Assembly: GCA_020726405.1 (NCBI GenBank)
Contig: DYSB01000001.1
Span: forward strand, 7,440 to 71,439
Direction of reading: 5' to 3'
From: Acetofilamentum sp.
GTDB taxonomy: Bacteria; CAIWAD01
Length of the DNA: 64,000 nucleotides
This document shows positions 20,967 to 56,125 of this stretch, piece after piece (the first letter of the stretch is position 1; every line of letters begins with the position of its first letter). The notes beneath the pieces are model-generated. The model saw only the letters and a program-made list of their open reading frames with translations. It searched no databases and was not told the origin of the DNA. The position numbers and the translations under genes are program-made.

Positions 20967-20976
20967 TCAGACCTTC

Positions 20977-22711: not shown

Positions 22712-22750
22712 TGATGAAAACGGCGGGGGCCCACCCGGTGGACCCCCGCC
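22712..22750 (-). terminator. strong hairpin plus U-tract between the Ig-domain lipoprotein gene and pilB (intra-locus attenuator/terminator)
   Basis: GGCGGGGG-C-CCAC...GTGG-A-CCCCCGCC at 22722-22750. On the minus strand it is followed by GUUUUCAUCACGCUUCACGAUUUCU; ~40 nt upstream of the pilB start. Confidence 0.5.
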
Positions 22751-22759
22751 GGAACTGCA

Positions 22760-25717: not shown

Positions 25718-25728
25718 CGTGGCACTCC

Positions 25729-27177: not shown

Positions 27178-27210
27178 CGGGGTCTATCTCCGTGTTTCAG
27201 TGAATTCGAC

Positions 27211-28448: not shown

Positions 28449-28468
28449 TCGGGGCTTCCTTTGCTGTC

Positions 28469-29077: not shown

Positions 29078-29078
29078 C

Positions 29079-30137
29079 TCAGTCCCTCCTCAGCGCCAGG
29101 CCCACGCAATGGGCGAATTGCGGTCCTCGCGCCCCGGCCGGAGCGCCTTCCATTCCGGCCAGCGGATCCCAGATCTCCACGGGCAGGGCGAACTTGTCGG
29201 CCAAAAGCTCGGGCAGGCCGGGCATGGCCGCGCCGCCGCCCGTGAGCAGCACTTTGCCGAAGTCGCTCTTGCCGGTCTCCTTGGCGTAGAAGCGCAACGT
29301 GCGCCGCACTTCGTCCAGGAAGTCCTCGATGACCGTGCGCTGCTGCAGGGCCAGCGCGGGTTTGCCGTCACTGCCGGCGCCGTGGAAGGCTTCCACGCCC
29401 TGGCGGCACTTGCGGGTCTCGGCCTCTTCCAGGGTGATGGACTGCTGGCGGGCCAGGTCCTCGCTCAGGTGGAAGCCGCCGATGGGGATTTCGCGGTAGA
29501 ACACCCGGCTCTGGTGCCCGGTGACGATGAACTGCGTGCCGCGGGCGCCCAGGCTCAGGAAGAGCACCAGGCCCTGGTCGGGCAGTTCCTGCGTCATGTT
29601 GTAGCTGTTGAGCAGGGCCAGGGGCTCGAGGTCCACCACGCCTGGCTTGAAGCCCGAGTCCTTGAGGATGGCCTCGTGCCAGCCGTACATCTTGCGCGTG
29701 GTGGCCACCAGCAGGATCCGGGACTTCTGCGGATCCTCGGGATCCTCGCCCAGGCTCTGGTGGTCGATGATGGTGTCGGAATCGTCCAGGGGCAGGTGCT
29801 TGCGAGCTTCGAAGATCAGGCTGGAGGCCAGCTCCTCATCCGACATGCGCACTGAGACGATTTCCTTCATGCTGGTGGCCGGACCACCCAGCGCCGACAC
29901 CAGGAACTTCACCTTGCCGGGATTGATGCGCATTTCGCTCATCAGCTCACGCAGGGTGAGCAAGGTCTCGGCACGGCGCAGCTTCTTGGGCTCGTAGCCC
30001 GTCTCGCCGCGGATCTCCCGCACCCCGGCCTTGAGGATCCGGGGAGTTTTGTGATGGGACTCGCACAGCACCGCCTTGATGGAGTGCGTGCCGATGTCAA
30101 GCCCCAGCGTTTGATTGGACCTTCCACCGAAGAACAT
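29079..30137 (-). CDS. pilM: type IV pilus assembly protein PilM (actin-like ATPase fold)
   Basis: 352 aa; LGLDIGTHSIKAVL FtsA/actin-like start; typical PilM length. Confidence 0.92.
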   Translation of the reverse strand: MFFGGRSNQTLGLDIGTHSIKAVLCESHHKTPRILKAGVREIRGETGYEPKKLRRAETLLTLRELMSEMRINPGKVKFLVSALGGPATSMKEIVSVRMSDEELASSLIFEARKHLPLDDSDTIIDHQSLGEDPEDPQKSRILLVATTRKMYGWHEAILKDSGFKPGVVDLEPLALLNSYNMTQELPDQGLVLFLSLGARGTQFIVTGHQSRVFYREIPIGGFHLSEDLARQQSITLEEAETRKCRQGVEAFHGAGSDGKPALALQQRTVIEDFLDEVRRTLRFYAKETGKSDFGKVLLTGGGAAMPGLPELLADKFALPVEIWDPLAGMEGAPAGARGPQFAHCVGLALRRD

Positions 30138-30174
30138 GCGCAGTGTCCTTGCTATTGCTGATCGCCCGAAAAAC

Positions 30175-32052: not shown

Positions 32053-32690
32053 TCCCCATCACCGAGGTTTTGCTGACGCATTTCCTGGATGTGCTTGTTG
32101 GGAACCGTGACGATGCGGCGGAAGGAGCGGCTGACCCGCTGCTCCTGCTCCCGATCCTCCACCTCCAGGGTCAGCAGCACTTCCGTCAGGATGTTGGTGA
32201 TGCGCGAATTGACGAAGGGCCGATCTTGATAGGGCCGCAGGCGGAAGTCCGTCACGTAGACGCGGAAGCGCTTGCCGTTGTTGATGCGCGGATCCAGCTG
32301 GGGGGGCGGAAAGTCGTCGATCCATTCCGGCCGGATGCCATTGTGCTGGATGATCACCTTGCGCTCGCCCTCCCGCGAGAGGGCGGTTTCCACCTGGCGG
32401 CCGGTGTTGAAGGAGCCCAGAAAGTTGAACTCGATGTCCTCCTTGGCCCGTCCGCCGGCATTGGCGTTGCGGGTGACCTCATGGGCCGCGCCGAAGGAGT
32501 CGCAGGCTTCGGTCAGGATCTGGTCCGCGTAGAAGTGGAGGTCGTTGAGGATCTTGTCGCGGGCCATCTGGCGGGCCTGGACGATCAACACGGTGGTCAG
32601 GCCCAGCACCATGACGCCCATCATGGAGATGGAGACCATCAGCTCCATCAGGTAGATGCCCCGCTCGGAACGCAGTCGACAGGGCTTCAT
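32049..32690 (-). CDS. type IV pilin-like protein (minor pilin), paralogue 1
   Basis: Starts at the internal ATG (32690): MKPCRLRSERG|IYLMELMVSISMMGVMVLGLTTVLIV. This is the prepilin peptidase motif (Gly, then Glu at +5, then a hydrophobic helix). The track's upstream extension is junk. Confidence 0.75.
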   Translation of the reverse strand: MKPCRLRSERGIYLMELMVSISMMGVMVLGLTTVLIVQARQMARDKILNDLHFYADQILTEACDSFGAAHEVTRNANAGGRAKEDIEFNFLGSFNTGRQVETALSREGERKVIIQHNGIRPEWIDDFPPPQLDPRINNGKRFRVYVTDFRLRPYQDRPFVNSRITNILTEVLLTLEVEDREQEQRVSRSFRRIVTVPNKHIQEMRQQNLGDGE

Positions 32691-33439
32691 GTGGACTCCC
32701 CTCTGACCCTGGACGGGTCGAATGAGCGGTTGAAGCGGTTCGTGGGGGGCCACAAGGCCGTATTGGGCCGGAGACGGTCCCGCTGCTCGCGCTCGCGTTC
32801 CCAGAGCGGGGTGCGCAGGCGCAGCAGGGCGGCGTTGGGCAGGGAGACCACGCGGCGGTACTCCCGGCTCAGGCGCTGACCGTTGTCGCGGTCCTCCAGC
32901 TCCAGCACCAGCCGGAGCTCCACCAGATCCTGCCAGAGCACGTAGGGCATGTGCCACTGGCGGTCCGGGTAATCGCCCACCGTCAGCTCCCGCACGCTGA
33001 CGCGCTGGCGCCGGCCATTGCCGCGCCGGGGATCCAGTTCGGCCGGCGGGAAGTCGTTGCACCAGTCCAGCCGCTGATTGTTGCGCAGGATCAGCACGTT
33101 GCGCCGCTGATTGAGCAGCAGGCGGGTCTCCAGGGTGCGGCCCAGGTTTCGGTAGGCGATGCCGCGGAACTCCAGCTCCTCCGAAAAGCGGGCACCGGTC
33201 AAGCTGTTGGGCAGCACGCGGCTGGCCTGGGCGGCGGCGGCGGCGGCTTCATCCAGCACGGCGTCGGCGTAGAAATACAGGTCGGTGAGCACTTTGTCCT
33301 GGGCCAGCTGCCGCGCTTGAACCACCAGCAGGGTGGCCATGCCCAGCACAACCACGCCGAGGAGCGCCACACCGGCCAGCATCTCCACCAGGGAGACACC
33401 GGCGTCGGAGCGCTGCGGAGCGTGGAGCCTCATGGTCAT
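32687..33439 (-). CDS. type IV pilin-like protein (minor pilin), paralogue 2
   Basis: MTMRLHAPQRSDAG|VSLVEMLAGVALLGVVVLGMATLLVV, again G/xxxxE. Shares QARQ(M/L)A(R/Q)DK(I/V)L(N/T)DL(H/Y)FYAD with paralogue 1, so it is a tandem duplicate. Confidence 0.75.
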   Translation of the reverse strand: MTMRLHAPQRSDAGVSLVEMLAGVALLGVVVLGMATLLVVQARQLAQDKVLTDLYFYADAVLDEAAAAAAQASRVLPNSLTGARFSEELEFRGIAYRNLGRTLETRLLLNQRRNVLILRNNQRLDWCNDFPPAELDPRRGNGRRQRVSVRELTVGDYPDRQWHMPYVLWQDLVELRLVLELEDRDNGQRLSREYRRVVSLPNAALLRLRTPLWEREREQRDRLRPNTALWPPTNRFNRSFDPSRVRGEST

Positions 33440-33444
33440 CCTTT

Positions 33445-33900
33445 CTAGCGCAACTGGTTCACGGCCGTGCGCAGGGTTTCGCGGCGCATGGCGGTGCCTT
33501 CGGGCCAGGTGATGGACACGGTGATCTGGAAGGCGTCGATTCCCGCCAGACGGATCAGGTCGATCTGCGGCGCCGGTGCGAATTCCGCCAGCACGTAGTC
33601 GCGCTCCCGGCGGTTGCCCGTGTCCAGGGCCACGAAGTGCCGCGCGCTGGGCCGTGGATGGTTGATGCCGAAGACATAGACCGAGGCTTTCCAGAACTCG
33701 ATCTCGCCCTGCAACTCCTCCAGGGCCCGCATGCGGCGGTATTCCTGCTTGGTCAGCTCGTGGGCCTGGTAGATGTTCTTCACCAGGGCCGTGGAGGTGA
33801 CCATCAGCAGCAGCACGGCGATGAGCAGCTGCGGGTAGAAGGCGATGCCCGTCTCCCCCAGGATCCAGGCCCGCCGGGCCGGCGTCTCGTGTGGCCGCAT
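33445..33900 (-). CDS. small membrane protein of the minor-pilin module
   Basis: 151 aa. One TM (IAFYPQLLIAVLLLMVTSTALV) but no canonical G/xxxxE motif. Located between pilT and the pilin-like genes. Confidence 0.45.
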   Translation of the reverse strand: MRPHETPARRAWILGETGIAFYPQLLIAVLLLMVTSTALVKNIYQAHELTKQEYRRMRALEELQGEIEFWKASVYVFGINHPRPSARHFVALDTGNRRERDYVLAEFAPAPQIDLIRLAGIDAFQITVSITWPEGTAMRRETLRTAVNQLR

Positions 33901-33924
33901 GGTCCCTCCTTCCCGTCGCCGGGA

Positions 33925-34992
33925 TCAGACGTAATGGTCGCCCAGCTCCAGATCGAAGACCTTGGGATTCTCCGCGATCTGGATGGCTTCCTGCCGGTCC
34001 ACCTTGCCCTCGCGCACCAGCCGCAGCAGGTCGCCGTCCAGCGTGTGCATGCCGGACTTGGACCCGCTCTGGATCACGTTGGGAATCTGGAAGATCTTGT
34101 CTTCGCGGATCAGGTTGCGCACCGCCGTGGTGGCCACCATCACCTCCGTCACCACCACGCGGCCCTTGCCGTCCTTGGTGGGCAGCAGGCGCTGGGCCAC
34201 CACCGCCTCCAGCGACTCGGACAGCATGGAGCGGACCTGCTGTTTCTGCGCACTGGGGAAGATGTCGATGATGCGGTCGATGGTCTTGGTCGCGCTGGAA
34301 GTGTGCAGGGTGGCCAGCACCAGGTGGCCGGTCTCGGCCGCTGTCAGCGCCAGCTGCACGGTCTCCAGGTCGCGCATCTCACCCACCAGGATCACGTCCG
34401 GGTCCTCGCGCAAGGCCACGCGCAGGGCGCTGGCGAAGGAATGCGTGTTGGCCCCCACTTCGCGCTGGTTGATCATGCAGTTGCGCGAGGTGTGGAAGAA
34501 CTCGATGGGATCTTCAATGGTGATGACGTGCTTCTCGTAGGCGTCGTTGATGATGTCCACCATGGCGGCCAGGGTGGTGGACTTGCCCGAGCCCGTGGGC
34601 CCGGTGAGCAGCACGAGGCCGCGGTCCTTGAGGGCCAGTTCCGTCAGCACCTTGGAGGGCAGCCCCAACTCGTCCAGGGACTTCAGGGATTCCGGGATGG
34701 TGCGGAAGACGGCCGAGGTGCCGAGGATCTGCTGAAAGAAGTTGACGCGGAAGCGCGCCACGCCTTCCAGCTTGTAGGAGAAGTCCACCTCGTACTTCTC
34801 CTCGAAAACCTGCTTCATGCGGGAGTTCATCACCCGGGAGCCGTAGGCGTCCATCTCCTCCTGGGTCATCACTCCCATGTTCAGCTTCTTCAGCGAGCCG
34901 TGCAGGCGGATCATGGGCGTGTTGCCCACCGACAGGTGCAGGTCAGAGGCGCCCTGCTCCACCGCAAAAGTCAACAGCTGGTCGATTTCCAC
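33925..34992 (-). CDS. pilT: twitching motility retraction ATPase
   Basis: 355 aa; Walker A GPTGSGKSTT, PilT signature AIRNLIREDKIFQIPNVIQSG. Confidence 0.95.
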   Translation of the reverse strand: MEIDQLLTFAVEQGASDLHLSVGNTPMIRLHGSLKKLNMGVMTQEEMDAYGSRVMNSRMKQVFEEKYEVDFSYKLEGVARFRVNFFQQILGTSAVFRTIPESLKSLDELGLPSKVLTELALKDRGLVLLTGPTGSGKSTTLAAMVDIINDAYEKHVITIEDPIEFFHTSRNCMINQREVGANTHSFASALRVALREDPDVILVGEMRDLETVQLALTAAETGHLVLATLHTSSATKTIDRIIDIFPSAQKQQVRSMLSESLEAVVAQRLLPTKDGKGRVVVTEVMVATTAVRNLIREDKIFQIPNVIQSGSKSGMHTLDGDLLRLVREGKVDRQEAIQIAENPKVFDLELGDHYV

Positions 34993-35100
34993 GCGGACCC
35001 CAGTGCTTGGTCAGGATTGAGAAGTGGCATGTCCGGCGGTCCGGGCATTCCAGCCACTTGCCCCGATGTGTGGTCGGGAACGGTCAGGTTGAGCGTGCCG

Positions 35101-35136
35101 ATCCGGCAAACGGCCAGCCGTCCCGAAGGACGGCCG
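35101..35136 (-). terminator. GC hairpin 3' of pilA (weak U-tract)
   Basis: GCCGTCC-CGAA-GGACGGC 7-bp stem at 35117-35134. On the minus strand it is followed by UGGCCGUUUGCC. Confidence 0.35.
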
Positions 35137-35150
35137 GCCCGTGCGAATCG

Positions 35151-35558
35151 CTACTCGCCGGCAGTCTTGGGGAAGCCGTAGCCTTCCCAGCGCCCTTCCT
35201 GGATGTTGAAGGTGACCACGTTGCCCGCGCCGCCCTTCATTTCGGCGGTGGAGGTGGCCTGGATCTGCTGGTCGCCAACCAACTGGAAGGTCCACTGACG
35301 CAAGGTGGCGTTGTCCAGCTCCAGGTAGCCGCCCTCGGACATGATCGTCAAGTCCGACGGCCACGAGCCCGTCTCCTGCTCGTAGATCTTGGCCGCGTTC
35401 AGGATGGCGTTGATCTGCACCTTGGCATCGGACGCGCGGGCGCCGCGAACGGCCTGGATGTACTTGGGCACGGCGATGGCAGCCAGAATGGCCACCAGGA
35501 TCACCACGATCAGCACTTCGACCAGGGTAAAGCCGCGTTCGTCTTTGCGGAACTTCAT
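35151..35558 (-). CDS. pilA: type IV major pilin
   Basis: Internal ATG at 35558 with GGGGAGA RBS: MKFRKDERG|FTLVEVLIVVILVAILAAIAVP. Textbook type IVa prepilin leader and N-terminal helix; 135 aa. Confidence 0.9.
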   Translation of the reverse strand: MKFRKDERGFTLVEVLIVVILVAILAAIAVPKYIQAVRGARASDAKVQINAILNAAKIYEQETGSWPSDLTIMSEGGYLELDNATLRQWTFQLVGDQQIQATSTAEMKGGAGNVVTFNIQEGRWEGYGFPKTAGE

Positions 35559-35816
35559 TCCATGTCTCCCCGAGTTGAAAGGTTTCTGAGTGGCCCGCCG
35601 GCCCTTGCAGGCCTGGCCCCATTGAACGATTTCCAAAGTAGGTACCTGCCCAGAGGCAGACAAGGACAAGGATTCGGAAGGGCGCTTTCCCCTCCCCCGG
35701 CCGCGTTCATCAAACCTTACACCTTGCCTTGGCCCTTAACATGCCGCCGCCCCAGCCTGACGGACGGGCGACCCGAATCAGGCTTTCAGCCCGGTTTTCG
35801 GCCATCCCGAAACAGG

Positions 35817-40913: not shown

Positions 40914-41570
40914 TCACGCGGTCGCCGCGGGGCACAGATCCGCCAGACCGCAGTCCGCGCAGCGCGGCCGCCGGGCCACACAGACCGCCCGGCCGTGATC
41001 GATGATCCGGTGGGTGAAGGCCACCCACTCCTCCGGCGGCAGCAGCTCCGTCACCTCGCACTCGATCTGCACCGGATCCCGGGACTCCGTCAAGCCCAGC
41101 AACCCCAGGATGCGGATCATGTGCGTGTCCACCACCACGGCGGGCTGGCCGTACCAGGTGCCCAGCACGCAGTTGGCCGTCTTGCGACCCACGCCGGGCA
41201 GCCGCACCAGTTCGTCCAGCCGGTCGGGCACGCGCCCCGCGTGCTCCTCGACGATCAGCCGGCAGCAGCCCTGGATGGCACGGGCCTTCTGGTTATGGTA
41301 GCCGCAGCTGTGCACGGCCCCGGCCAGCTCCTCCAGCCCGGCCCCGGCCAGGGCCGCGGCGTCGGGCCAGCGCCCGAACAGGTCCGGAGTCACCTGGTTG
41401 ACCCGGGCATCCGTGCACTGGGCGGACAGGATGGTTGAGACCAGCAGCTCCAGTGCCGAGGTATGCCGCAGCGCGCAGCCACTGTCCGGGTAGGCCTCCC
41501 GCAGCCGGCGCGCCACCGCCCGGGCCCGGGTCCGCCGGGCGGTCGCCGACTCTCCTGCCCGCCGACTCAC
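40914..41570 (-). CDS. nth: endonuclease III
   Basis: HhH-GPD motif LPGVGRKTANCVL and the [4Fe-4S] cluster C-x6-C-x2-C-x5-C (CVARRPRCADCGLADLC). Proposed GTG start at 41570, giving the usual ~219 aa and a GTGA overlap with the stop of the upstream gene; the track ORF extends further. Confidence 0.75.
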   Translation of the reverse strand: MSRRAGESATARRTRARAVARRLREAYPDSGCALRHTSALELLVSTILSAQCTDARVNQVTPDLFGRWPDAAALAGAGLEELAGAVHSCGYHNQKARAIQGCCRLIVEEHAGRVPDRLDELVRLPGVGRKTANCVLGTWYGQPAVVVDTHMIRILGLLGLTESRDPVQIECEVTELLPPEEWVAFTHRIIDHGRAVCVARRPRCADCGLADLCPAATA

Positions 41571-41959
41571 GGGGTCTCGCCCCGGAGTGATGTTTCCGTC
41601 CAAAGATCGGCAGGCCGGCTCTCCCAATTCGGCCTGGCCAGCCGTTCCAGCAGCAGGTGGGGCAGCGGCAAGCCCAGCCCCGTGGCCCACTCGGGTTCCT
41701 GGAATTCCGTCGTCATCAGGCGTCCCAGCTTGATCGTGGCCTTCTCCCGCAGACTCTGGGCGCCCGCGGTGTTGCCGCTCTCCCGGTGCAGCTGGGACAC
41801 AACCAGCTGGATCAGCGCCTGTAGCCAGAGCCGATCGTCTCCGGTCAATTCCAGCCACAGCTCCTCCCAGATCTCGTGGGCGGAATAGGTGTGGCCGCGG
41901 CGGGCCTGGCGCAGCCCGCGGGAGGCCAACGAGCGGCGCCGATCGGCGGGTGTGCTCAC
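41567..41959 (-). CDS. DUF309-like small protein
   Basis: C-terminal 130 aa of track ORF 41567..42814 (the rest is antisense to the kinase). YSAHEIWEELWLELTGDDRLWLQALIQLVVSQLH matches the DUF309 HE-x-WE-x-LW pattern. GTG at 41959 overlaps the TGA of the hybrid kinase (GTGA). Confidence 0.55.
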   Translation of the reverse strand: MSTPADRRRSLASRGLRQARRGHTYSAHEIWEELWLELTGDDRLWLQALIQLVVSQLHRESGNTAGAQSLREKATIKLGRLMTTEFQEPEWATGLGLPLPHLLLERLARPNWESRPADLWTETSLRGETP

Positions 41960-44385
41960 GCGCCGGACTCCCGCGCGCCGGCCGGCGTCTCCAGGGCCTG
42001 GCGCACACGCCGGCTCAGGGATTCCAGCGTGAAGGGTTTGCCCAGCAGGGGCGCGCCCTGAGCGGGACTGAGGTCGTGCCGACTGAGTTCGCCGTCCGTG
42101 TAGCCGCTGCAGAACAGCACGCGCGCGCCGGGCCAGATCTCCAGCAGACGCCGCACGGCGGCGGGCCCGCTCATTACGGGCATGATCACATCGCTGAAGA
42201 TGAGGTCGGCGGGCCGGAGCTGAGCGCGGGCCAGCTCCAGGGCCTCCATCCCGTCGGCGGCGGCCAGCACGTGGTAGCCACAGTGCTCCAGGAGGCGCAC
42301 GGTCAGTTCGCGCACGGCGGGGTCGTCCTCCAGCACCAGGATGGTCTCGCTGCCCCGGGGCAGCTCGCCGCTCTCCTGCGGCACCTCGACCTGGCGGACC
42401 TGCAGGGCCCCGATGGAGGGGAAGTAGAGCCGGAAGCGCGTGCCCGAGCCCGGCCGGCTCTCCACGGTAATGGCGCCGCCGCACTTCTTGACGATGGCGT
42501 AGACGATGGAGAGCCCCAGGCCCGTGCCCTTGCCCAGGGCCTTGGTGGTGAAGAAGGGTTCGAAGATCCGGCTGTGCAGGGTCTCCTCGATCCCGTGCCC
42601 CGTGTCGCTCACTTCCAGCTGGACGTAGGGACCGGGCGACAGACTCATCACGCGCCGGGCCTGGCCGGCACTGAGTTCCAGGTTGCGCACGCGCAGGCTC
42701 AGTTTGCCGCCGTCGGGCATGGCGTCCCGGGCGTTCACCACCAGGTTGATCACCACCTGCTCGATCTGGCCGGGATCCGCCCGGATGGCCCAGCCCTCGT
42801 CGCCCGGTATCCACTCCAGTTCCACCGACTCGCCGATCAGCCGGCGCAGCATGTTCTCCAGGTCATCCAGCAGGCGCTGCAGCATGAGCGGCCGGGGGGC
42901 CATCTCCTCCTGGCGGCTGAAGGTGAGCAGCCGGCGGGTCAAATCCGCGGCGCGCTGGCAGATCTGGATCTGGTCCTGCAGGTAGCGGCGCACAGAGTCC
43001 GGCTCGTCCATGTGCTGGAGCGCCAGCTCGGCGTTGCCGCTGATCCCCGTCAGCAGGTTGTTGAAGTCGTGGGCCAGGCCGCCCGCCAGGTTGCCGATGG
43101 CGTCCAGCTTCTGGGCCTGACGCAACTGCTGCTCCAGATTGCGCAGCTCCGTGACGTCCTGGACCATGAGGATCGCCCCGCTCACGCGGCCGACGGCGTC
43201 CGCGTGGGGTGAGATCTGCACCAGCAGCTGGCTGCGCACCCCGTAAATCGAGGTGTAGTCCAGCTCCAGGTTGCGCACCACCTCGCCGCGCCCCACCCGC
43301 TTGAGCAGGTCGTCGATGGGCACGCCATGCAGGCCGGGCAGCTCGGCCAGCGGCCGACCCAGCGCCCGGGACGCCGCCTGGCGCGGTACACCCATCATCT
43401 GCTCCATGGCGGGGTTTTCGTAGACCAGGACGCCGGAGAGATCCACGTACATCACGCCCATGGGTGCGTGCTGGATCAGGCCCCGGTTGAATTCCTCCGA
43501 GGCCTTCAGGACCGCCTCGGCGTACTTGCGGTCGGTGATGTCGCGCACGATGGCCAGCAGGAAGTGGCGTTCCCCCAGATCCAGGGGCGAGAGCAAGACC
43601 TCGGCGTCGAACGTGCTGCCGTCCACCCGGGCGTGCAGCCACTCGAAGAACTGGCGCTTGCCCGCCACGGCGGCGGAGATGTGCCGGGCGGCCTGCTGCT
43701 CGCTGGAGCGTCCGTTCCGCTGCAGGGGCGGCGACAGATCCAGCGGTCGCATGCCGGTCAGCGTCTCCGCGGCACGCCCGAGCATGCGCGCGGCGGCGGG
43801 ATTGCACTCGACGAAGCGCTCACCCTCCATCAGGAAGATGGCGTCCAGGGCCTCCTCAAACAGGCCGCGGTAGCGGATCTCGCTCTGGCGCAAAGCGCTC
43901 AGGGTCTCCAGCTGCGAACTCAGGTCCTGCACGCTGCCCAACAGGCCCAGCGCGCCTTGCTGCTCGTCGCGCAGGACGCAGAGCCGGACCTGGACCGGCA
44001 GTTCTCGACCGTCCGGTCGCTTCAGGTTAGTCGACAGCTCCAGGGGCCACTGCTCCACCCCGCCCGCCAGGACCTCATCCAGCCCGAATCCGGGCATGAA
44101 CTCCGTCACCAGCCGGCCTTCCACCTGACTGTGGGCCAGACCCAGCAGGTCGCCCAGGGCTTGGTTGCAATAGGTGATCCGCCCCAGCGGGTGGATAAAG
44201 AACAGGGGCGCGGGCACCAGATCGCCCATTTCCTGCAGCATCAGGGCCGTTTCGTGGCCGAGGCGCGGACTGAGCTCACTGCCGGCGCCCAGATCCTGGA
44301 AGCGCTTCCGTAGCATGTGTTCCAGGGCCAGCAGGCGCTCGCGCAGCTGACACAGGCTTTCCGCGCGGTCCGGGTGGATCGTCAT
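41956..44385 (-). CDS. PAS-domain hybrid sensor histidine kinase (multiple PAS, HisKA, HATPase_c, C-terminal receiver)
   Basis: 809 aa. PAS repeats, H-box [16 protein letters not shown], ATPase G-boxes, and a C-terminal REC ([13 protein letters not shown]...[10 protein letters not shown]). Confidence 0.9.
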
Positions 44386-44673
44386 GCCGCACTCCTTTCC
44401 GGGCTCCGTGGGCTCCAGTTCCTCTACAAGGGCGCGTCACCCTGTGGAAATCCGGGGCGCCGGCAAGCGGAAAGCTGGTCTGGAGACGCGCTGCGTTCGA
44501 ATCAGAACGTGATTCAAGGTACTCGACAAGGCCCGATCCCCCAAGGCCTGAGTTCAACTTAGGTTCAATCCAGGCGCAATCTCCCCCGCGCAACTGCCGA
44601 TAAGCCGGGGACCAACTGGCAAAGGAAGAGAAAAACGGGCGGACGGATCCACATCAGCCAGCATCCGGGCCGG

Positions 44674-45327
44674 GTGCGCAATTCCACTGAGGACTGGGCC
44701 GCCGGCGAGGAGCGGGCGGGCCGGCTGGCCTGCGCCATCTGCGATGGCATGGGGGGCATGCGCCACGGCGACCGGGCCTCCCGGGCAGTGGCCGACCGCT
44801 TCCTGGCCCTTTGTCTGCACGACGAGCGCAGCCTGAGTGCCGTCTGGCCGCCCAGCTCCCAGCGCGTGCAGTTGGAATTGGCCGTGGTGATGGCCCGCCT
44901 GCAGGCTGAGCTGCGGGAGCGCCGGGTGGCCACCACGTTCACGGGTCTGGCACTGGCCGGGTTGCGCGGACGGCTCTACCACGTGGGGGACAGCCGGGCG
45001 TACCTGCTGCGCGACGGGTTCGCGCACCAGCTTAGCCGCGACCACCGGGTGAGCGCGGACCAGCCCCAGCTGCTCAGCCAGGCCCTGGGCTCGCCCCAAC
45101 ACGACCGGCTGGAGTGCCTGGACCTGGAGCTGGACCCCGGCGACCGCTTGTTGCTCTGCAGCGACGGTTTCACTCAAACGGGGCTGGAATCCGAGGAACT
45201 GCTGCGCCTGCTGGCGTCGAACGAAGCGGACGCCCGTGTGCCGGAGCTGCTGTTGGAAGAGGCCCTGCGGCGCGGCGCGGAGGACAACCTGAGTCTGGTC
45301 TGGATCATTCCCGAGGCGGCGGCATGA
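44674..45327 (+). CDS. PP2C-family Ser/Thr phosphatase (compact)
   Basis: GTG start. Metal-binding motif CDGMGG, plus YHVGDSRAY and LLLCSDGF. TGA overlaps the ATG of the downstream kinase (ATGA at 45324-45327). Confidence 0.8.
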   Translation: MRNSTEDWAAGEERAGRLACAICDGMGGMRHGDRASRAVADRFLALCLHDERSLSAVWPPSSQRVQLELAVVMARLQAELRERRVATTFTGLALAGLRGRLYHVGDSRAYLLRDGFAHQLSRDHRVSADQPQLLSQALGSPQHDRLECLDLELDPGDRLLLCSDGFTQTGLESEELLRLLASNEADARVPELLLEEALRRGAEDNLSLVWIIPEAAA

Positions 45328-48300
45328 ACCCCCATCCGGCAGCCGATTCCCTGCGCTTCACGGAGCTTCGCCCCCAGGGCGAGGGCGCCAGTGCGCGGGT
45401 CAGTTGTGCGCGGGACCGCTGGACGGGCCGCGAGGTCGTGCTCAAAGAGGCCCGCTCGCTGGGCCAGGACGTCCACGGTTTCCTGAAGGAGGCGCGGCTG
45501 CTCCAGATGCTGCGCTCCCCGGTCTTCCCCGAACTGGTGGAATTCGATCCCGGCGACGACCAGCATCCCGCCCGGCTGGTGCTGGAGAAGCGCCCGGGAC
45601 TGGCCCTGGCCGAGCTGACGGACTCTCCGGCCTGGTCCTTGGCCGCCGGCGAAGCGGACTGGATCACCATCCAGGTCCTGCAGGGGCTGACGGAGTTGGC
45701 CGAGCGCGGCTGGGTCCACGGCGACCTGGGTCCGGCCAACCTGCTGCTGGACGGCAGCCGAGCCAGCCTGCTGGACCTGGGTCTGGCCCGCTCCACACGG
45801 GACCGCCACCGCGCCCGCTCGGGAACGCTCAGCGTGATGCCGCCGGAAATCCTCAGCGATGGGCTGCCCCATCCGCGCTCGGATATTTTCTCCCTGGGGG
45901 CCCTGCTCTTCCAACTGCTCTGCGGCGCCTCGCCCTTCCCGGACGATCCCGACGAGGCCGTGGGCGCCATCCTGGCCGGTCGTCTGCGCCCGGCCGGCCG
46001 CGCGGCCACGCATCCGCTCTTCCCCTTCATCCTGCGCTGCCTGCACACGGAGCCCGGCCGGCGGCCCGCCCCTCAGGAAGCCCTGGCCGAGCTGACGGCC
46101 GCCCTGTCACCTGCCCGCACGGCCCTGCTGCTGCCCCGGCGCGGCCCGGGGACCTGGGAGACCAGCCTGCTGAAGCAGGTGGTGTCACGGCTCGCCGCCG
46201 GCACCTGCGTGCGCCTGCATAGCGGCAGTGCGGGACCCTGGCGCGCCCGGCTGGAACAGCTCCAGGTAGAGGTATCCGCCCGGCGCGGCCCGCTGCTCAG
46301 CATCCGGCGCGCCGAGGGGGAGTCGCTGCTGGATTGGCTGGCCCGCCGCGTGGACCATCCCGGCCGCTTGCGGCACTACCCGGAACTGGCCGGCGCCCTG
46401 GAGCGCCGCCGGGGCGGACCGGACCTGCTGCGCCTGGTGCTGGGCTTCCTGGACGACCAACTGGGCCGGCCCCGCCAAGGCCTGTGCTGGCTGACCCGAC
46501 CCGGCGACCCCGACGCCGCCCGATTGCACGATCTCGTCGCCCTCTGCGAGCGGCAGGCCCGCCCGCTTTTAATCCTGGAACTGGACTCCGACCCGGCGGA
46601 CGCTCTGCGCTTGGAAGCACCCGGCCGGGAGACCTGGCAGGGCTGGCTGCGTCGGCCGGCCCCCGGTATCGAATTGAGCGCGCCAGCCGCCGCAGCCCTG
46701 GACTCCCTCACAGGCGGGCAGAGCGAGCGCATCCCGCCGCTGGTGGCCCGCTGCATCAGTGAAGAGCGCCTCCTGCGCCGGAACGGACTCTGGGAACTGG
46801 GTCCGCTGGGCCTGCCCGCCCAGGAAGCCCGCGGAGCCGCGGACCTGGCGGCTCTGGGCGGACCCGTCCGCCGAGCCCTGCTGCGGGCCTGTGCCTGGCT
46901 GGAGCCCGCACCAGCCGGTGCCTGGCGCTCCCAGGTCCAGCAAGGCCGCGAGCGCGAGCTGGAGAGCCTGGAAGGAGCCGGCTGGTTGCGCGACCGGGGT
47001 GACGGCCAGCTGGAGCCCCAGGCCGGTGTGCGCGAGCTGCTGGGCCCGGCCAGCCTGCAGCCCGAGCACCTGCAGATCCTGCACGAACTGTGGAAGCTCC
47101 CCGAGCCGCCCGCCGAGCTCTGCCTTTTGCACCTGGGCCGCTGCGAACTGGGGCTGGCCGATCCGCTGGTGGCGCGCGACGTCCTGCTGGCCGCCCACGG
47201 GCTGGTGGATCCGGCGCGCCGGGTTCGGCTGATCCAGGAGTTGCTGCCTTTTTTGGCCCTGGGCGAGGTGGACGAACTGGAGACCCTGCTGGCCACGGGC
47301 CTGCTGGCCCAGGGCCGCCCGGCAGAGGCCCGGCGTCTGTTGCGCCGCCTGTTGCGCCGTGCCCGGGGCGAGTTCGTACTGCCGCTGATCAGCCGCCTGG
47401 CCTTCGTCTACATTTTGTTGGGCCGCCACCGGCTGGCCCTGCGCCTGCTGGACCGGGCCCGGCAACTCGCCGCCGATCCATTGGACCGCCTGCTGCTGCG
47501 GGTGACGGCGCTGGATCCGCTGCTGCGCAGCGGACAACAGGCCCGGGCAGTGGCGGAGCTGGCGGCCTGCCTGCCCGAGCTGCTGGACTGCGATCCGGCC
47601 GCCGGGCCCCAACAGGCCCACGCGCTCAATTCCGCCGGGGCCGCGGCCTTCCAACTAGGCCGCATGGACGATGCCGCGCGCCTCTGGACCCAGCTCGACC
47701 GGGCCGGCCGACAGCAGCTCCAGGTCCAGCAGCGGGTTTGGCTGGCCAACAATCTGGGCATTCTGCACCTGCAGGCCGGGCGGATCGAGCAGGCCCGCGG
47801 GGAACTGGAGCAGGCCGGACGCGAGGCCGCGCTCTACCACCTGGAACGCTACGAACTGATGGCCCGGGTCAACCTGGCGCTGGCCCAACTGCGGCGCGGT
47901 GCGGCGGACCAGGCCGTGCGCGAGCTGGAGCCGGCCTTGCAACAGGCCCGCGATCTCCAGGAGCCGGTGACGGAACTGGCCGTGCTGGATCATCTGGGGG
48001 ACTCCTGGGCCGCCCTGGGCGACCTGGAGGGTGCCGAGCGCGTCTGGCACGAGGAGCTGGCCAAGGCCCGGGAACTGGACAGCCCCAAGGACGAGCTGGA
48101 CCCATTGGCCCAGCTACTGCGCCTGGATCTGGACCTGGGGCTGGCGCCGCGCGGCGACCTACTGGCACGGTTTGAGGAATTGGCCGCGCTCCACGATTCG
48201 CCTCCGGCCCGCCAGTGGCGCCTGCTCAAGAACCTGCAGGACTGCCTGGCGCCGGAGCGGAGCAAGAGCCCAAGTCCCGGAACCGATTGGCCCGCGGACC

Positions 48301-48758
48301 TTGCCCCCGCGCTACGTTTGCAGGCCGCCGGCCGCGAGGTGCCCCGGGATGAACTGTTGCACGCGCTGCTCGAGCTGGATCCCCGCCTGGACGGCGTCCG
48401 GGTGGCGCTGGCCATGCTGGAGCACCGCCTGGCCTGGCTGGCCGACTGGTCCACGCCCTTGCGCGAGGAGCGCGAGATGCACCGACTGCAGCAGATCCGT
48501 CTGCTGGCCCTGGAAGGCGAGCTGGCCGCGCGGCGCGAGAATTGGCCCGAAGCGGGCCAGCGGCTGGGCCGCGCTGTTCGCATGCTGCACGGCATGGTCC
48601 AGGACCTGTCGCCCGCCTGGCAGGCCCGGCTGAAGGAATCACCCTGGCTGAGCCACTTGCTGACCCGGGCCGAGGATTGTCTGCATCGAGTGAACGAACT
48701 GGAGAGGAGAGACCATGGCCACACTGCTGGAACAGTTGGCCGCGCTGCAGGAGCTTGA
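45324..48758 (+). CDS. Ser/Thr protein kinase with ~850-aa C-terminal TPR-like helical repeat region
   Basis: Track ORF starts at 45114, but the ATG at 45324 (MNPHPAAD) is translationally coupled to the phosphatase. Kinase motifs: VVLKEA (beta-3 Lys), HGDLGPANLLL (HRD variant, non-RD), DLGLA (DFG variant), SVMPPE (APE-like). A long Leu/Ala/Arg-rich repeat tail follows. Confidence 0.85.
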   Translation: MNPHPAADSLRFTELRPQGEGASARVSCARDRWTGREVVLKEARSLGQDVHGFLKEARLLQMLRSPVFPELVEFDPGDDQHPARLVLEKRPGLALAELTDSPAWSLAAGEADWITIQVLQGLTELAERGWVHGDLGPANLLLDGSRASLLDLGLARSTRDRHRARSGTLSVMPPEILSDGLPHPRSDIFSLGALLFQLLCGASPFPDDPDEAVGAILAGRLRPAGRAATHPLFPFILRCLHTEPGRRPAPQEALAELTAALSPARTALLLPRRGPGTWETSLLKQVVSRLAAGTCVRLHSGSAGPWRARLEQLQVEVSARRGPLLSIRRAEGESLLDWLARRVDHPGRLRHYPELAGALERRRGGPDLLRLVLGFLDDQLGRPRQGLCWLTRPGDPDAARLHDLVALCERQARPLLILELDSDPADALRLEAPGRETWQGWLRRPAPGIELSAPAAAALDSLTGGQSERIPPLVARCISEERLLRRNGLWELGPLGLPAQEARGAADLAALGGPVRRALLRACAWLEPAPAGAWRSQVQQGRERELESLEGAGWLRDRGDGQLEPQAGVRELLGPASLQPEHLQILHELWKLPEPPAELCLLHLGRCELGLADPLVARDVLLAAHGLVDPARRVRLIQELLPFLALGEVDELETLLATGLLAQGRPAEARRLLRRLLRRARGEFVLPLISRLAFVYILLGRHRLALRLLDRARQLAADPLDRLLLRVTALDPLLRSGQQARAVAELAACLPELLDCDPAAGPQQAHALNSAGAAAFQLGRMDDAARLWTQLDRAGRQQLQVQQRVWLANNLGILHLQAGRIEQARGELEQAGREAALYHLERYELMARVNLALAQLRRGAADQAVRELEPALQQARDLQEPVTELAVLDHLGDSWAALGDLEGAERVWHEELAKARELDSPKDELDPLAQLLRLDLDLGLAPRGDLLARFEELAALHDSPPARQWRLLKNLQDCLAPERSKSPSPGTDWPADLAPALRLQAAGREVPRDELLHALLELDPRLDGVRVALAMLEHRLAWLADWSTPLREEREMHRLQQIRLLALEGELAARRENWPEAGQRLGRAVRMLHGMVQDLSPAWQARLKESPWLSHLLTRAEDCLHRVNELERRDHGHTAGTVGRAAGA

Positions 48759-50433
48759 ACTCAGGAGCGAGGGGTTGGCCCAGCGCCAGGAACGCTTCTC
48801 CCGCCGGGAGTTGGACCTGGTGATGGGCCTGGCCCGCGAACTGAACACCTGCACCACGCCGGGCGAGGCCCTGCACTTCCTGCTCCACCAGGCCATCCGC
48901 CTGGCGGGGGCCCAGCGCGGCGCCATCGTGGAACTGGACGAGCAGGCCGAGGGCGGCCTGCGCTTCACGCTGGGCGCGGATCGCGATGGCTTCCCCCTGG
49001 CGCGACCCGAGACCCAGGTCTCGCACTCCATCATCCATCTGGTGCTGGAGAGCGGCCAACCCCTGCGCAGCTCCAACCTCTCCCAGCTGGAGGAGCTGGC
49101 CCAGGCCCGCTCGGTGATCGACCTGGACTTGAAGAGCAGCCTCTGCGCGCCCCTGCGTCGCCATGGCCGGGTCTTCGGCGCGCTCTACGTGGACAGCTCC
49201 AGCACCACGCTCTACAGCGAGCACATGCTGGTCCTGCTGGACGGCTTCTGCGAATTGTGCTCGCTGACCCTGACCCAACTGCAGCTGCGCCGCTCCGAAC
49301 AAGCCCAGCAGAAGCGCTTCGACCACTTCGAGCGCCTGCACCTGCACATCGTGGACTCGCTGCCCAATGCGCTGGCGCTCTACGACGACCAGCAGCGCCT
49401 GCACTTCGCCAACCTGACCTTCCGGCGCGAGCTGGGCTCGCTCTCCCTCGTCCAGCCGGACGCCGAGTCCCCGCTGGGCTGGCGCTTCGAGAACACCTTT
49501 GCCCGCTTCCTCGCCACACTGGGCGAGCGGCAGGAGCGCACGGCGGATTGGTCCGTGGACGGCCGCCGGCTGCGTTGCCGGCCCTTTCCCCTGGCGCCGG
49601 AGGAGGGCGGCGACGCGGTCTGGGGCCTGATCCTCAGCGACGTCACCACCGAGGTGCGCATGCAGCAGGAGCTGTTGGAGAGCGAGAAGTTCGCCATGAT
49701 GAGCCGCACGGCCGGCTCCATCGCCCATGAGATCCGCAACGCGCTGGCACCTTTGCACGGCCACGTGCAGCTGGCCCGCCTGACGTTGCAGGAGCGGCCC
49801 TCCGTCCTGGACGATCTGGATCCCGACCTCCAGGTGGTGGAGGAGATGGCCGGCCGCATCGAGCGCATCGTGCGCACGCTCTCCGACCTCTCCCGTCCGC
49901 CCCAGCGCCAACTGGGGGAGGTGGACCTCAACGCCCTGGCCGCGGGCACTGTCACCCTGCTCAAGGAAATGGGCGGCAAGATCAAGCGCTTCGACCTGTC
50001 CGTGGGCGGCCCGGAACCCGACATCGACGACCGCGCCGGCCTGCGCATCCGGCTGGACGCCATGCCGCGCCTGCCCAAGTTGCTGGCCGATCAGGAGCAG
50101 CTGCAGCAGATGCTGCTCAACCTGCTGATCAACGCGGCGCACGCCGTGGAGGCTGTGGGCGGCGGCTGGGTGCAGTGCCGCACGCGCGTGATGGGCGACC
50201 AGCTGTTGCTGACGGTGGAGGACACGGGCTGCGGGATGGATGAACAGGTGCTGGCGCGGCTCTGGGAGCCCTACTACACGACCAAGGGCGAGGGCGGCTC
50301 GGGGCTGGGCATGCCCCTGGTCCGGCAGGTGGTGGAGGCACACCAGGGACTGATCCAGGTCCAGAGCAAGCCCGGCGTGGGCACCACGTTCCGCATTCTC
50401 TTCCCCGTGGCCAACCCGCGCAACCCGGCCTGA
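48715..50433 (+). CDS. cytoplasmic GAF/PAS sensor histidine kinase
   Basis: ATG preceded by GGAGAGGAGAGACC; overlaps the kinase gene by 44 nt. GAF-like N-terminal region, H-box SIAHEIRNALAPL, HATPase_c (GCGMDEQVLARLWEPYYTTKGEGGSGLGM). No TM segments. Confidence 0.9.
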   Translation: MATLLEQLAALQELELRSEGLAQRQERFSRRELDLVMGLARELNTCTTPGEALHFLLHQAIRLAGAQRGAIVELDEQAEGGLRFTLGADRDGFPLARPETQVSHSIIHLVLESGQPLRSSNLSQLEELAQARSVIDLDLKSSLCAPLRRHGRVFGALYVDSSSTTLYSEHMLVLLDGFCELCSLTLTQLQLRRSEQAQQKRFDHFERLHLHIVDSLPNALALYDDQQRLHFANLTFRRELGSLSLVQPDAESPLGWRFENTFARFLATLGERQERTADWSVDGRRLRCRPFPLAPEEGGDAVWGLILSDVTTEVRMQQELLESEKFAMMSRTAGSIAHEIRNALAPLHGHVQLARLTLQERPSVLDDLDPDLQVVEEMAGRIERIVRTLSDLSRPPQRQLGEVDLNALAAGTVTLLKEMGGKIKRFDLSVGGPEPDIDDRAGLRIRLDAMPRLPKLLADQEQLQQMLLNLLINAAHAVEAVGGGWVQCRTRVMGDQLLLTVEDTGCGMDEQVLARLWEPYYTTKGEGGSGLGMPLVRQVVEAHQGLIQVQSKPGVGTTFRILFPVANPRNPA

Positions 50434-50484
50434 AAAGGAACCGCCCCGGCGGGGCCGGGGCGGCAGGTTCCAGTCGCGGAACTC

Positions 50485-51075
50485 CTACCGGTTGCCACCA
50501 GCAGGTCTGTCGTCGGGCGGCGGGCCCGTGGCGATGAGATACTTGGAGAAGTGTTCGAGGCGGACGTCCACGCGGGCTTCCTCGTCCGCGCTCATCCAGT
50601 GCACCTCGTTGGACACCACTTCATACCAGCCATCCTGGAGGTCGTAGACCACCAGCAGTTCGTCGCCAGCGGGCAGGTCGGCTTCGCTGAGCGGCAGCAC
50701 CAGCTCGAATTCCAGCGGCGCCAGAAATTCCTGGCCCTCCGGCCCGAACTCGAAGCCGATGGCCGGCGTGGCTTCGTCGCCCTGCCAGTTGGCTACGATG
50801 GTCACCGGCGCGCTCACCGCACCGGCCGGCGCCTTCAAACTGAAGCCCGCACCCGTGTACTCGGACGCCGCGCCCGGAGTCACCACCAAGGTGAAATCCG
50901 TCATGGCATCCAGGTCGTGGGCTTTGGCGGGGAGGTCCGCCGGCGTGAGCAGGCGGATTTGGTCGCGGGACAGCAGCCGTCCGCTCGACTCAGGCGCACG
51001 GCTCCCGTCAGTGGAGCAACCGAGCGCGAGAAGCAGGGCCAGACCGGCTGCACCAAGGGGCAGGAAGCGTCTCAT
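50485..51075 (-). CDS. lipoprotein of unknown function (paralogue A)
   Basis: MRRFLPLGAAGLALLLALGCS lipobox (internal ATG at 51075). Acidic beta-rich body. C-terminus HFSKYLIATGPPPD is shared with the neighbouring paralogue. Confidence 0.7.
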   Translation of the reverse strand: MRRFLPLGAAGLALLLALGCSTDGSRAPESSGRLLSRDQIRLLTPADLPAKAHDLDAMTDFTLVVTPGAASEYTGAGFSLKAPAGAVSAPVTIVANWQGDEATPAIGFEFGPEGQEFLAPLEFELVLPLSEADLPAGDELLVVYDLQDGWYEVVSNEVHWMSADEEARVDVRLEHFSKYLIATGPPPDDRPAGGNR

Positions 51076-51223
51076 GAACACCTCGTTCTGTTGTGGGGTG
51101 GTACAACTGCTTGCTCCGGAGGACACGTCCTCAGTGGAACGCTCAGAGTTTAGTCAACGAGGTGGCTGGGAAAAAGCAAAAAGTGTGTAAAAAACAACTA
51201 CTTGCTCTCAGAAACAGGAAAGA

Positions 51224-51270: not shown

Positions 51271-51866
51271 TCAGCGCGTGGTGGTGTTGTCCGGCGGCGG
51301 GCCGGTGGCGATCAGGTAGCGGCAGAAATGGTCGATCTCGGCCCGGATCTTGACTCCGTGGGGATTGTCCAGATCCCCCTCCGGCATCGCTTCCACGACA
51401 CTGGGAATGATCTCATAGGTGCCATCCTCGTGATCGAGCACCACCAACAGGCAAGCTGGATCCAGCCCTTCCAGATCGCGCGCCTTGAGTTTAAACTCCA
51501 CCTGCAGGGGCAGCAAGAACTCCTGCAAGAACTCCAGGCCGTCGGGACCGTAGTTGTAGCCGATGACCGGATTCTCGTTCTCATCCCCCAACCAGTCGCC
51601 CGTGATGGTGGCTTCCTGGCCAACGCAGCCCCGCGGGGCACGCAGACGGAAGCCCGGCAGATCCAGCGCGGCCGATCGCTGGGGGGTCAAGTCCAGGCTG
51701 AAGTCGCCGCCCAGGTCCGCGTTCATATCCTTGGCAACCGCTGGTACCAGGATCTGCAGCTGATCGGCCTGCAGCAGTCGGGTGGCGGGTTCGTCGTCGG
51801 TGTTGGCGCAACCGCTGAAGAAGGCAGGGGCAACAGCAGCGCGAGCAAGTATCTGGGGTGACTCAT
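51271..51866 (-). pseudogene. lipoprotein paralogue B, disrupted by a -1 frameshift between signal peptide and mature domain
   Basis: ATG at 51866 (AAGGAA RBS) encodes MSHPRYLLALLLPLPSSAVA... then stops after 47 codons. The lipobox and mature domain (FFSGCANTDDEPATRLLQADQLQIL...DHFCRYLIATGPPPD) continue in the -1 frame and align well to paralogue A. No start codon exists in that frame upstream of the lipobox. The switch lies near a CCCC run. Confidence 0.55.
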
Positions 51867-55340: not shown

Positions 55341-56125
55341 ATGAGCCAGATCCTGCGCATCCGCCTGGAAAGCCAAGGTCCCCGTGTCCTGCGCGGACGA
55401 CGGGCCGAACGCCGGCACGCGCATCCTCCCATCCAGCCGGAGGGCCGCAGCTCCACCTACGAGCTGGGCATGTATGACGTCCAGGGCCGTGAGCGCACCC
55501 TCTTGGTGACCGGCAACCCGCTGCGCAATCGTCAGGGCGGGATCGTCGGCTCCTTCGGCGTGCTCAAGGACATCACCGAGCGCAAGGCCCGGGAGCAGGC
55601 CCTGGAGACGCGCCTGCTGCTGGACCAGGCCGTCTCGGATCCGTCCGGGCCCTGGTGCGGCCGGGGCAATTCGCCGAGGCCCTGAACGTGGCCCTGGGAG
55701 GCCTGGGCATCCTGCTCAACGCCGACTGCGTGCGTGTGTACCAGCTGAATCCGGCCCGGCACGAACTGAGCTGCACCCAGGAGTGGCCGCCCCTGCGCGG
55801 CGAGCGCAGCGTGCTGGGACGCCCCTTCTCCGCGGGCCACTATCAGTGGTGGATGTCATCCTTGCGCAGCGGCGAGATCCTCTACATCAAGCAGCTGAGC
55901 GACGTCCCCGCCACGGCCACCGAGGAGCGGGAGACGATGGAGGCGCTGGCCATCCGCAGCCTGCTGGCCATCCCCCTGCTGCAGAACGGCGTCCTGCTGG
56001 GCTTCGTTTCGCTGGAGAATCCCGATCCCTTCGGCGAAGTGTTGAGCGGCGACCTGGGCAGCCTGCTGGTGTTCGGCGACGTGCTGGCCGCCGCCCTGGC
56101 CCAGCGCGAGCCATCGTCGGCCTGA
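55341..56125 (+). pseudogene. PAS-GAF sensory-domain remnant, frameshifted, with no output domain
   Basis: ORF 55341..55685 holds only the C-terminal half of a PAS fold (YELGMYDVQGRERTLLVTG...GIVGSFGVLKDITERKAREQALE). A GAF-like segment continues in the -1 frame (55655..56125: ...LLGFVSLENPDPFGEVL). No kinase or other output domain follows. Confidence 0.5.

Follow-up and report, generated by a model that had tools for sequence, protein, structure and literature searches.

A phosphatase, an atypical Hanks-type kinase and a GAF histidine kinase encoded in one predicted, translationally coupled operon of an uncultured bacterial lineage

The 64-kb stretch of Acetofilamentum sp. DNA analysed here (contig DYSB01000001.1, hereafter the window) contains three consecutive genes encoding a PP2C-type Ser/Thr phosphatase, a Hanks-type protein kinase with a long C-terminal tail, and a histidine kinase with a GAF domain (GAF-HK). 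Comparison with related loci identifies this trio as a co-inherited, translationally coupled operon of a small uncultured lineage. The explanation that fits best, to which we assign a probability of roughly one half, is that kinase and phosphatase set the Ser/Thr phosphorylation state of the co-produced GAF-HK, which would then signal to a regulator encoded elsewhere.

Operon structure and conservation of the trio

The gene map of the window (62–74% G+C) was drawn from open reading frames with a coding-type G+C content at the third codon position. The stop codon of the phosphatase gene and the start codon of the kinase gene share the ATGA at 45324-45327, as an earlier reading of the sequence (the original prediction) had noted, and a GAGG is located 8 nt upstream of the start. 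At the second junction, the kinase gene terminates with TGA at 48756-48758, downstream of the GAF-HK ATG at 48715, which results in an overlap of 44 nt. GGAGAGGAG directly 5′ of this ATG provides the ribosome-binding site. As Met1 and the N-terminal leucines of GAF-HK align across 10 orthologues, this overlap is genuine. The strong ribosome-binding site proposed for the gene is indeed present. A scan for terminators and hairpins found no credible terminator inside the trio, while a strong hairpin 3′ of the GAF-HK stop (50440-50464), followed by a convergent gene, marks the operon end. Thus, overlaps, good ribosome-binding sites, terminal hairpin, and retention of the trio in all 11 related loci substantiate the predicted tricistronic operon.

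The related loci with readable context comprise the window's own contig (L001, in the metagenome-assembled genome (MAG) GCA_973787295.1), L003/L004, the P0004 contig, L005, L006, L007, L008, L089, the P0244 contig, and L009 and L010. The latter two belong to GTDB genomes and are at 33% identity to the window, and two of the compared loci are JGI contigs. The closest relative (90% identity) carries the annotation Candidatus Delongbacteria. The order PP2C–kinase–GAF-HK, with overlapping or abutting genes, is kept in 11 of 11 loci from 90% down to ~30% identity. Nearly all PP2C–kinase junctions overlap by 4–8 nt, with a 14-nt gap in L008, and the kinase–GAF-HK overlaps in the contexts read measure 44, 44, 44, 17, 17, 8, 4, 1, 1, and 34 nt. 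Moreover, the relative frame of kinase and GAF-HK varies with the locus, being +1 for overlaps of 44 and 17 nt and −1 for those of 34, 4, and 1 nt. This difference among loci rules out a programmed frameshift joining the two proteins, so that the overlap reflects translational coupling rather than a conserved frameshift site.

The family is small. A word-indexed search returned 12 full-length relatives of the kinase, and an exhaustive search with a profile of the interval between kinase domain and tetratricopeptide repeats (TPR) matched 11 proteins among 1.84 billion representatives. The 8 strong matches are all 1118–1153 aa long and identical in layout. Likewise, full-length relatives of GAF-HK occur in the same clade only, with no kinase fusion among them. 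Compared with the 90% relative, at a dS of 0.23–0.33 across genes, the ratio of nonsynonymous to synonymous substitutions (dN/dS) amounts to 0.125 for PP2C, 0.14 for the kinase domain, 0.18 for the kinase tail, and 0.046 for GAF-HK, and to 0.17 for a divergently transcribed hybrid kinase discussed below. All genes are under purifying selection. Given the preserved order and overlaps and the dN/dS values of 0.05–0.18, the trio represents a real selected unit, in agreement with the compact Ser/Thr plus His-Asp unit that had been envisaged.

Table. Trio genes, their predicted domains, and flanking elements in the window
Feature	Position	Strand	Description and basis
PP2C/PPM Ser/Thr phosphatase gene	44674-45327 as listed (GTG, 217 aa); likely 44635..45327	+	PP2C_2 profile
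Hanks-type kinase gene	45324-48758	+	1144 aa; Pkinase profile
Hanks-type protein kinase domain, residues 1-260	45324..46103	+	Pkinase 86.3 bits, cut-off 31.7
Predicted degenerate STAND/AAA+-like NOD, residues ~280-568	46161..47027	+	α/β NTPase-like, helical domain, winged helix
Predicted TPR superhelix, residues ~569-975	47028..48248	+	TPR profiles; model of all-helical hairpins
Predicted C-terminal helical bundle, residues ~995-1134, plus stop	48306..48758	+	Model secondary structure
GAF histidine kinase (GAF-HK) gene	48715-50433	+	572 aa; GAF, weak PAS, HisKA, HATPase_c (Pfam)
GAF-HK domains			GAF residues 47-186; PAS-like ~205-320; HisKA 329-395 (H338); HATPase_c 459-566 (Pfam)
GC-rich hairpin, 11 pairs	50440..50464		Between GAF-HK stop and convergent gene
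Divergent intergenic region	44386..44634		Two conserved blocks (alignment with relatives)
PAS x3 hybrid histidine kinase, CckA-like	41956-44385	-	809 aa; Pfam

Domain architecture of the three proteins

The kinase fold is supported by Foldseek scores (TMt) of 0.65–0.78 against the CaMKII and DCLK1 domains, and PknB ranks among the best PDB sequence matches. Across 10 sequences of the family, the VAIK lysine (K41), the αC glutamate (E56), the catalytic D134, N139 of the catalytic loop, and the DFG aspartate (D151) are invariant. The same holds for H132-G133, L152-G153, R165-S166-G167-T168 in the activation loop, P174-E175, D187, and R247. The catalytic loop reads HGDLGPAN as opposed to HRDLKPEN in the calcium-dependent protein kinase CDPK, and HGDL(G/S)P(A/G)N throughout the family. 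The enzyme had originally been described as a non-RD variant with HGD for HRD and DLG for DFG that keeps both aspartates. This description applies to every member but overlooked that the catalytic-loop lysine is absent as well. Alignments to CDPK and EGFR revealed no compensating arginine as in Tyr kinases.

Residues 121–160, which span the catalytic loop and DLG, are the best-conserved block of the entire protein. Active Rio, Bud32, and APH-type kinases normally have HGDLxxxN loops, and weak RIO1 and ABC1 matches are found in 7–8 of 10 family members. The loop pattern HGDL[GS]P[AG]N also recurs in kinases of many Actinomycetota (Janibacter, Knoellia, Arsenicicoccus), Planctomycetota, and Myxococcota (loci L011-L088), which suggests that the loop devoid of Arg and Lys is a widespread, little-discussed variant of Hanks-type kinases. 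Since the residues whose loss usually defines pseudokinases are kept, the loop is the best-conserved block, and the loop recurs in other kinases, the enzyme is probably active despite its atypical loop.

The tail of ~850 residues had been taken as TPR-like. A TPR array is present, but it is preceded by a degenerate nucleotide-binding oligomerization domain (NOD) of the STAND type and followed by a helical bundle. In the AlphaFold model of the kinase protein (pLDDT 81), an α/β domain (residues ~280–430) leads into a helical part and a winged helix that extend to residue ~568. Thus, the predicted structure displays the full NOD architecture of α/β, helical, and winged-helix domains with C-terminal repeats, and structure matches of the tail include the STAND-fold proteins Avs5 and NLRs. 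The position of the Walker A motif, between β1 and α1, is occupied by HSGSAGPWR, which varies freely in the family, and no GxxxxGK[ST] is present at this site. The NOD block retains 17% identity to distant members, and neither AAA_16 nor NB-ARC or NACHT is matched in Pfam at E<=1 in 10 members. In a comparison of the NOD with profiles of AAA_16 kinases, which was not significant, the TGGxxxxIPxL/STAND-typical GGNPxF motif aligned with LTGGQSERIPPLV. Based on the modelled fold and a Walker A site that is both lost and non-conserved, we read the tail as a decayed STAND module without P-loop, in a PknK-like architecture.

TPR_12 and TPR_2 match all or most members and TPR_MalT two, while the kinase of the window displays weak TPR matches at residues 654–718. 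Within the tail, conservation peaks in the TPR segment around residues 800–880, where it nearly equals that of the catalytic loop, with an identity of 0.59 to distant members over residues 801–840. Such a conserved patch is as expected for a partner-binding surface.

In GAF-HK, H338, N469/N473, DxGxG (503-507), and GxGxG (528-532) are invariant. The nearest curated models are AtoS, ZraS, EspC, and NtrB-type kinases, all matched far below their equivalog cut-offs. As the transmitter is closest to the AtoS/ZraS/NtrB-type models, this hints at a partner of the NtrC family encoded elsewhere. No stand-alone receiver was found in the window or adjoining the trio in any related locus, which extends the predicted lack of an adjacent response-regulator gene to the relatives, and no NtrC-like protein is encoded in the window. 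A word-index search with the GAF domain only gave no matches, its own family not being recovered either. Transmembrane segments are absent from all three proteins, with maximal Kyte–Doolittle values over 19 residues (KD19) of 1.44 for GAF-HK, which had been predicted to be soluble, and 1.65 for the kinase.

The phosphatase matches PP2C_2 with 43.4 bits (cut-off 24), and its metal-binding motifs STED, CDGMGG, SDG, and EDN are present in the window protein. The closest relatives share ED, DGMGG, SDG, and DN, with changes of DN to DQ in L006 and of DG to EG in L008. The NCBIfam equivalog for Stp1/IreP is not reached (102 vs 230). Its reading frame remains open for 37 codons 5′ of the listed GTG (44563-44674), a segment without ATG, GTG, or TTG. 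An in-frame ACG at 44635, which would yield a 230-aa product, is located 6–8 nt after the Shine–Dalgarno-like AAGGAAGAG (44622-44630) and, in the alignment, coincides with the ATG at which the L005 orthologue starts. Further, the upstream peptide RIHISQHPG, corresponding to β1, is conserved in relatives, and initiation at GTG 44674 would delete this first strand. The stretch between ACG and GTG differs from L003 at 1 of 39 nt, compared with 11 of 60 nt just upstream, and the 90% relative carries the same ACG in assemblies that are independent of each other. Hence, the phosphatase probably starts at ACG 44635 rather than GTG 44674. Either a weak non-canonical start is used or a truncated protein is made, and the phosphatase is possibly down-tuned.

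Between the hybrid kinase and the trio, two blocks at ~44509-44527 (TCAAGGTACT core) and 44574-44615 (CGCAAT...CTGCCGATAAG) are kept in relatives at 60–90% identity. A promoter scan of this divergent intergenic region, conserved blocks included, found no match to the sigma-70 consensus, and the blocks may represent sites for a regulator or an alternative sigma factor.

Proposed mechanism and alternatives

Most known examples of Ser/Thr kinase–two-component cross-talk come from a few model bacteria, where the genes involved are unlinked. For the trio, we propose that the STAND/TPR tail no longer operates as a nucleotide switch but would serve as a docking and sensing scaffold for the co-translated GAF-HK. 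The atypical kinase would phosphorylate GAF-HK, or the complex, on Ser/Thr, with PP2C reversing the mark. This phosphorylation would gate the autokinase or phosphatase output of GAF-HK, which might then signal to an unlinked response regulator that plausibly belongs to the NtrC family. In functional terms, the trio would correspond to a split version of fused dual kinases composed of Ser/Thr kinase, GAF, and histidine kinase modules. Gating of a histidine kinase by Ser/Thr phosphorylation is proposed because of the precedents IreK–CroS, YbdM–DegS, PknK, HstK, and P0082, which are compared with the trio in the next section.

Several observations weigh against this explanation. HRD arginine and catalytic-loop lysine are missing from every member, and the Gly-rich loop is weak and imperfect. 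A comparison of the NOD with two AAA_16 kinases gave a non-significant hhalign probability below 1%, so that the AAA_16 link rests on predicted structure. Moreover, the family amounts to ~8 clusters at 50% identity, which is not enough to analyse coevolution, and its carriers are uncultured MAG lineages. A stronger version, which we regard as tentative and rather doubtful, holds that the three proteins form an obligate complex, specific to a Delongbacteria-like candidate-phylum lineage, in which the former STAND switch has become a permanent TPR dock and the Ser/Thr mark is the primary switch of His-Asp signalling.

Alternatively, kinase/PP2C and GAF-HK might not act on each other but converge on a shared downstream regulator, modified on Ser/Thr and on Asp, as in the case of PknK with MtrA and PrrA. 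Response regulators are among the substrates of PknK-type STAND kinases (PMC9045387), and co-inheritance and coupling would fit two inputs into one target equally well. However, a regulator gene is linked to the trio in 0 of 11 loci, and the tight coupling as well as the fused analogues HstK and P0082 favour a physical unit of kinase and GAF-HK, so that we consider convergence unlikely. A relay resembling EspA/EspC, in which GAF-HK and/or the kinase feed the receiver of the divergent hybrid kinase to form a four-gene node, appears improbable. This hybrid kinase consists of three PAS domains, HisKA, HATPase_c, and a C-terminal receiver with intact DD-D-S-K signature, which is the only receiver in all six frames of the window, as the original prediction had implied for the neighbourhood. 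The gap between its ATG and the PP2C GTG is 288 bp, matching the ~290 bp given before. Apart from L001, four independent loci (L003/L004, the P0004 contig, and L005) have the hybrid gene directly divergent from the trio, in L006 and L089 it is located three genes away, with pntAB in between, and transfer from EspA to the EspC receiver sets a precedent (PMC4320627). On the other hand, the 5–6 kb around the trio do not contain it in L009, L010, or the P0244 contig; in these three, nth (endonuclease III) directly adjoins the PP2C gene. The hybrid kinase also carries its own transmitter of the CckA type; in its helix around the phosphorylated histidine (HDFNNLL), most residues following the His are not those of GAF-HK (HEIRNAL). 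Finally, the stop of the hybrid gene overlaps the co-oriented DUF309 gene (41567-41959, -), which in turn overlaps the endonuclease III gene (40914-41570, -), an arrangement kept in relatives; the hybrid gene thus heads a minus-strand run of its own. From this variable synteny and the differing helix, the hybrid kinase is to be seen as a facultative neighbour of the trio, and its proposed membership in the signalling node is not supported.

A further alternative concerns the kinase itself, which might be a pseudokinase that binds nucleotide without phosphotransfer and assembles GAF-HK and PP2C, the latter acting on another phosphoprotein. The loss of both loop residues with no compensating Arg, the imperfect Gly-rich loop, and the clear decay of the adjoining NTPase would all be compatible with a scaffold. 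Yet the VAIK lysine, the catalytic aspartate, and the DFG aspartate, the usual defining losses, are invariant together with N139 and E56 down to 30% identity, the same loop pattern and the weak RIO1/ABC1 matches connect it to other kinases, and a dedicated PP2C is co-inherited; a pure scaffold is therefore little probable in our view. Least of all do we favour an anti-phage or stress defence module of the STAND-kinase type unrelated to two-component signalling. The STAND-fold matches to Avs5 and NLRs would suit such a role, as would the PADLOC matches MAD6 and PD-T4-6, but the latter are generic to the kinase domain; tail and GAF-HK have none, and PP2C has one marginal match to RmrA (E 0.0066). 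These generic matches and the stable housekeeping context on the chromosome, maintained across ~36–90% identity, led us to reject the defence reading, and the P-loop required for STAND switching is lost.

In the trio, kinase, phosphatase, and histidine kinase are hard-wired in one coupled operon. A single coupled operon names the likely partners in advance, which would make reconstitution in vitro straightforward. Should the obligate complex exist, it would constitute a "split HstK" and a natural, genetically compact model of how Ser/Thr phosphorylation gates a two-component pathway. In addition, the locus offers an example of a retained STAND module without NTPase motifs and of a Hanks-type catalytic loop without Arg and Lys conserved under selection. 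Because the parts are familiar and come from uncultured organisms, the gain is an incremental and not a conceptual one.

Genomic surroundings and relation to known systems

A type IV pilus cluster occupies ~18745-35669 (-) and encodes PilD prepilin peptidase, PilC, PilB, secretin, PilO-like protein, and PilM, along with a 985-aa Big_1 protein, a 625-aa protein of no assigned family, minor pilins, PilT, and pilin. Neither a PilS/PilR pair nor any other response regulator is encoded in the window. Six genes separate the cluster from the hybrid kinase, including those for a TonB-dependent receptor, fumarase, GTP cyclohydrolase I, endonuclease III, and DUF309, and polysaccharide (EPS) genes are located at 8194-12326. 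The original placement of the trio "next to" the pilus and EPS loci is loose, since the pilus cluster ends at 35669, 9 kb away, and the EPS genes are more than 32 kb away. Distance is the sole relation of the trio to either locus, and a tie to them was rejected. Likewise, the suggested control of motility and EPS is unsupported, with only unrelated housekeeping genes in between.

The partnership of DUF309 and nth with a hybrid kinase in one run is an odd one. In L005 (4542-8121, -), the receiver of the hybrid kinase is out of frame with the transmitter, due to a frameshift or an assembly error. Downstream of the trio, relatives keep genes for two small proteins without assigned function, rubrerythrin, and an NfnAB/GltD-like oxidoreductase, and peroxiredoxin and desulfoferrodoxin are among the downstream neighbours in one relative. 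These neighbours give a weak hint at a link to redox physiology. The two small proteins of the window (50485-51126, - and 51271-51726, -) are paralogous, both ending in HF(S/C)(K/R)YLIATGPPPD, and match no Pfam or NCBIfam family. The former carries a lipoprotein-like signal (LLALGCST), and in most relatives counterparts of the two follow the trio. At 55341-56125 (+), the window contains two short open reading frames whose products comprise no more than a PAS fragment (114 aa) and a GAF domain (~150 aa), at a position where L003, L005, and the P0004 contig encode a 650-aa CHASE4-HAMP histidine kinase. The site may thus hold a broken or replaced sensor gene.

The arrangement of the trio had been put forward as unreported. 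This is overstated, as PP2C–Ser/Thr kinase gene pairs are commonplace, the same chain is known in fused form from HstK, and P0082 provides a further fusion. A literature search returned no paper on the trio and nothing relevant on signalling in Delongbacteria. The HstK/cbSTKIII dual kinases of filamentous cyanobacteria combine Ser/Thr kinase, GAF, and HisKA/HATPase modules in one chain (PMC2176072), in the same order in which the trio distributes kinase, GAF, and histidine kinase transmitter over two genes. In the trio, by contrast, the chain is interrupted by a stop in every locus and resumes at an overlapping start codon in a different frame, and a PP2C is added upstream. The likeness to the cyanobacterial proteins seen here is one of domain order, with no sequence kinship detected. 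A fused, HstK-like form of the trio family (~1700 aa) was found neither among the GAF-HK homologues nor among the exhaustive NOD profile matches. P0082, from a deltaproteobacterial MAG, is a fusion of Pkinase, AAA_16, TPR, GAF, and sigma54 activator whose GAF domain shares 24% identity with that of GAF-HK (pairwise E 2e-10). In contrast to the trio, whose output is a histidine kinase, P0082 is a single polypeptide with a sigma54 enhancer-binding output and a retained AAA_16 signature.

With PknK of Mycobacterium tuberculosis and other kinases of the kinase–STAND (AAA_16/MalT-like)–TPR type, the trio kinase shares the Hanks-type kinase, NOD, helical/winged-helix part, and TPR arm, the tail being known from predicted structure. 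PknK, itself a STAND kinase, acts on two-component proteins and phosphorylates response regulators; like the trio kinase, it is cytoplasmic, and it interfaces with two-component signalling (PMC9045387), as is proposed for the trio. The trio kinase differs in that it has no Walker A motif and no match to AAA_16 or NB-ARC profiles, is of the non-RD type without catalytic-loop Lys, and is always encoded between the PP2C and GAF-HK genes. Its NOD is highly diverged, as reflected in the few profile matches (11 proteins among 1.84 billion).

The mode proposed for the trio, modulation of a histidine kinase by Ser/Thr phosphorylation through a Hanks-type kinase with a partner PP2C, corresponds to IreK/IreP–CroS and YbdM–DegS. 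IreK phosphorylates CroS at Thr346 in Enterococcus (PMC12189002), and YbdM phosphorylates DegS in Bacillus (PMC3033389). These kinases are membrane-bound PASTA or unrelated soluble enzymes with genes apart from those of the histidine kinases, whereas the trio unites all components in one operon with a STAND/TPR scaffold. The Esp system of Myxococcus xanthus (EspA/EspC, PktA5/PktB8) is likewise a mixed node of Ser/Thr and His-Asp signalling with a hybrid receiver as acceptor, EspA phosphorylating the EspC receiver (PMC4320627). Its domain layouts and gene order differ from those of the trio locus, the NCBIfam scores stay far below the levels for EspA/EspC orthology (95 vs 1400 and 133 vs 1200), and no developmental or motility link is shown for the trio. 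Taken together, these comparisons characterize the trio as a split-gene form of known signalling architectures and not as a new kind of system. What appears new is that the split form is coupled and includes a PP2C, that the STAND module has lost its P-loop, that a loop without Arg and Lys is conserved, and that the trio is restricted to a small uncultured lineage.

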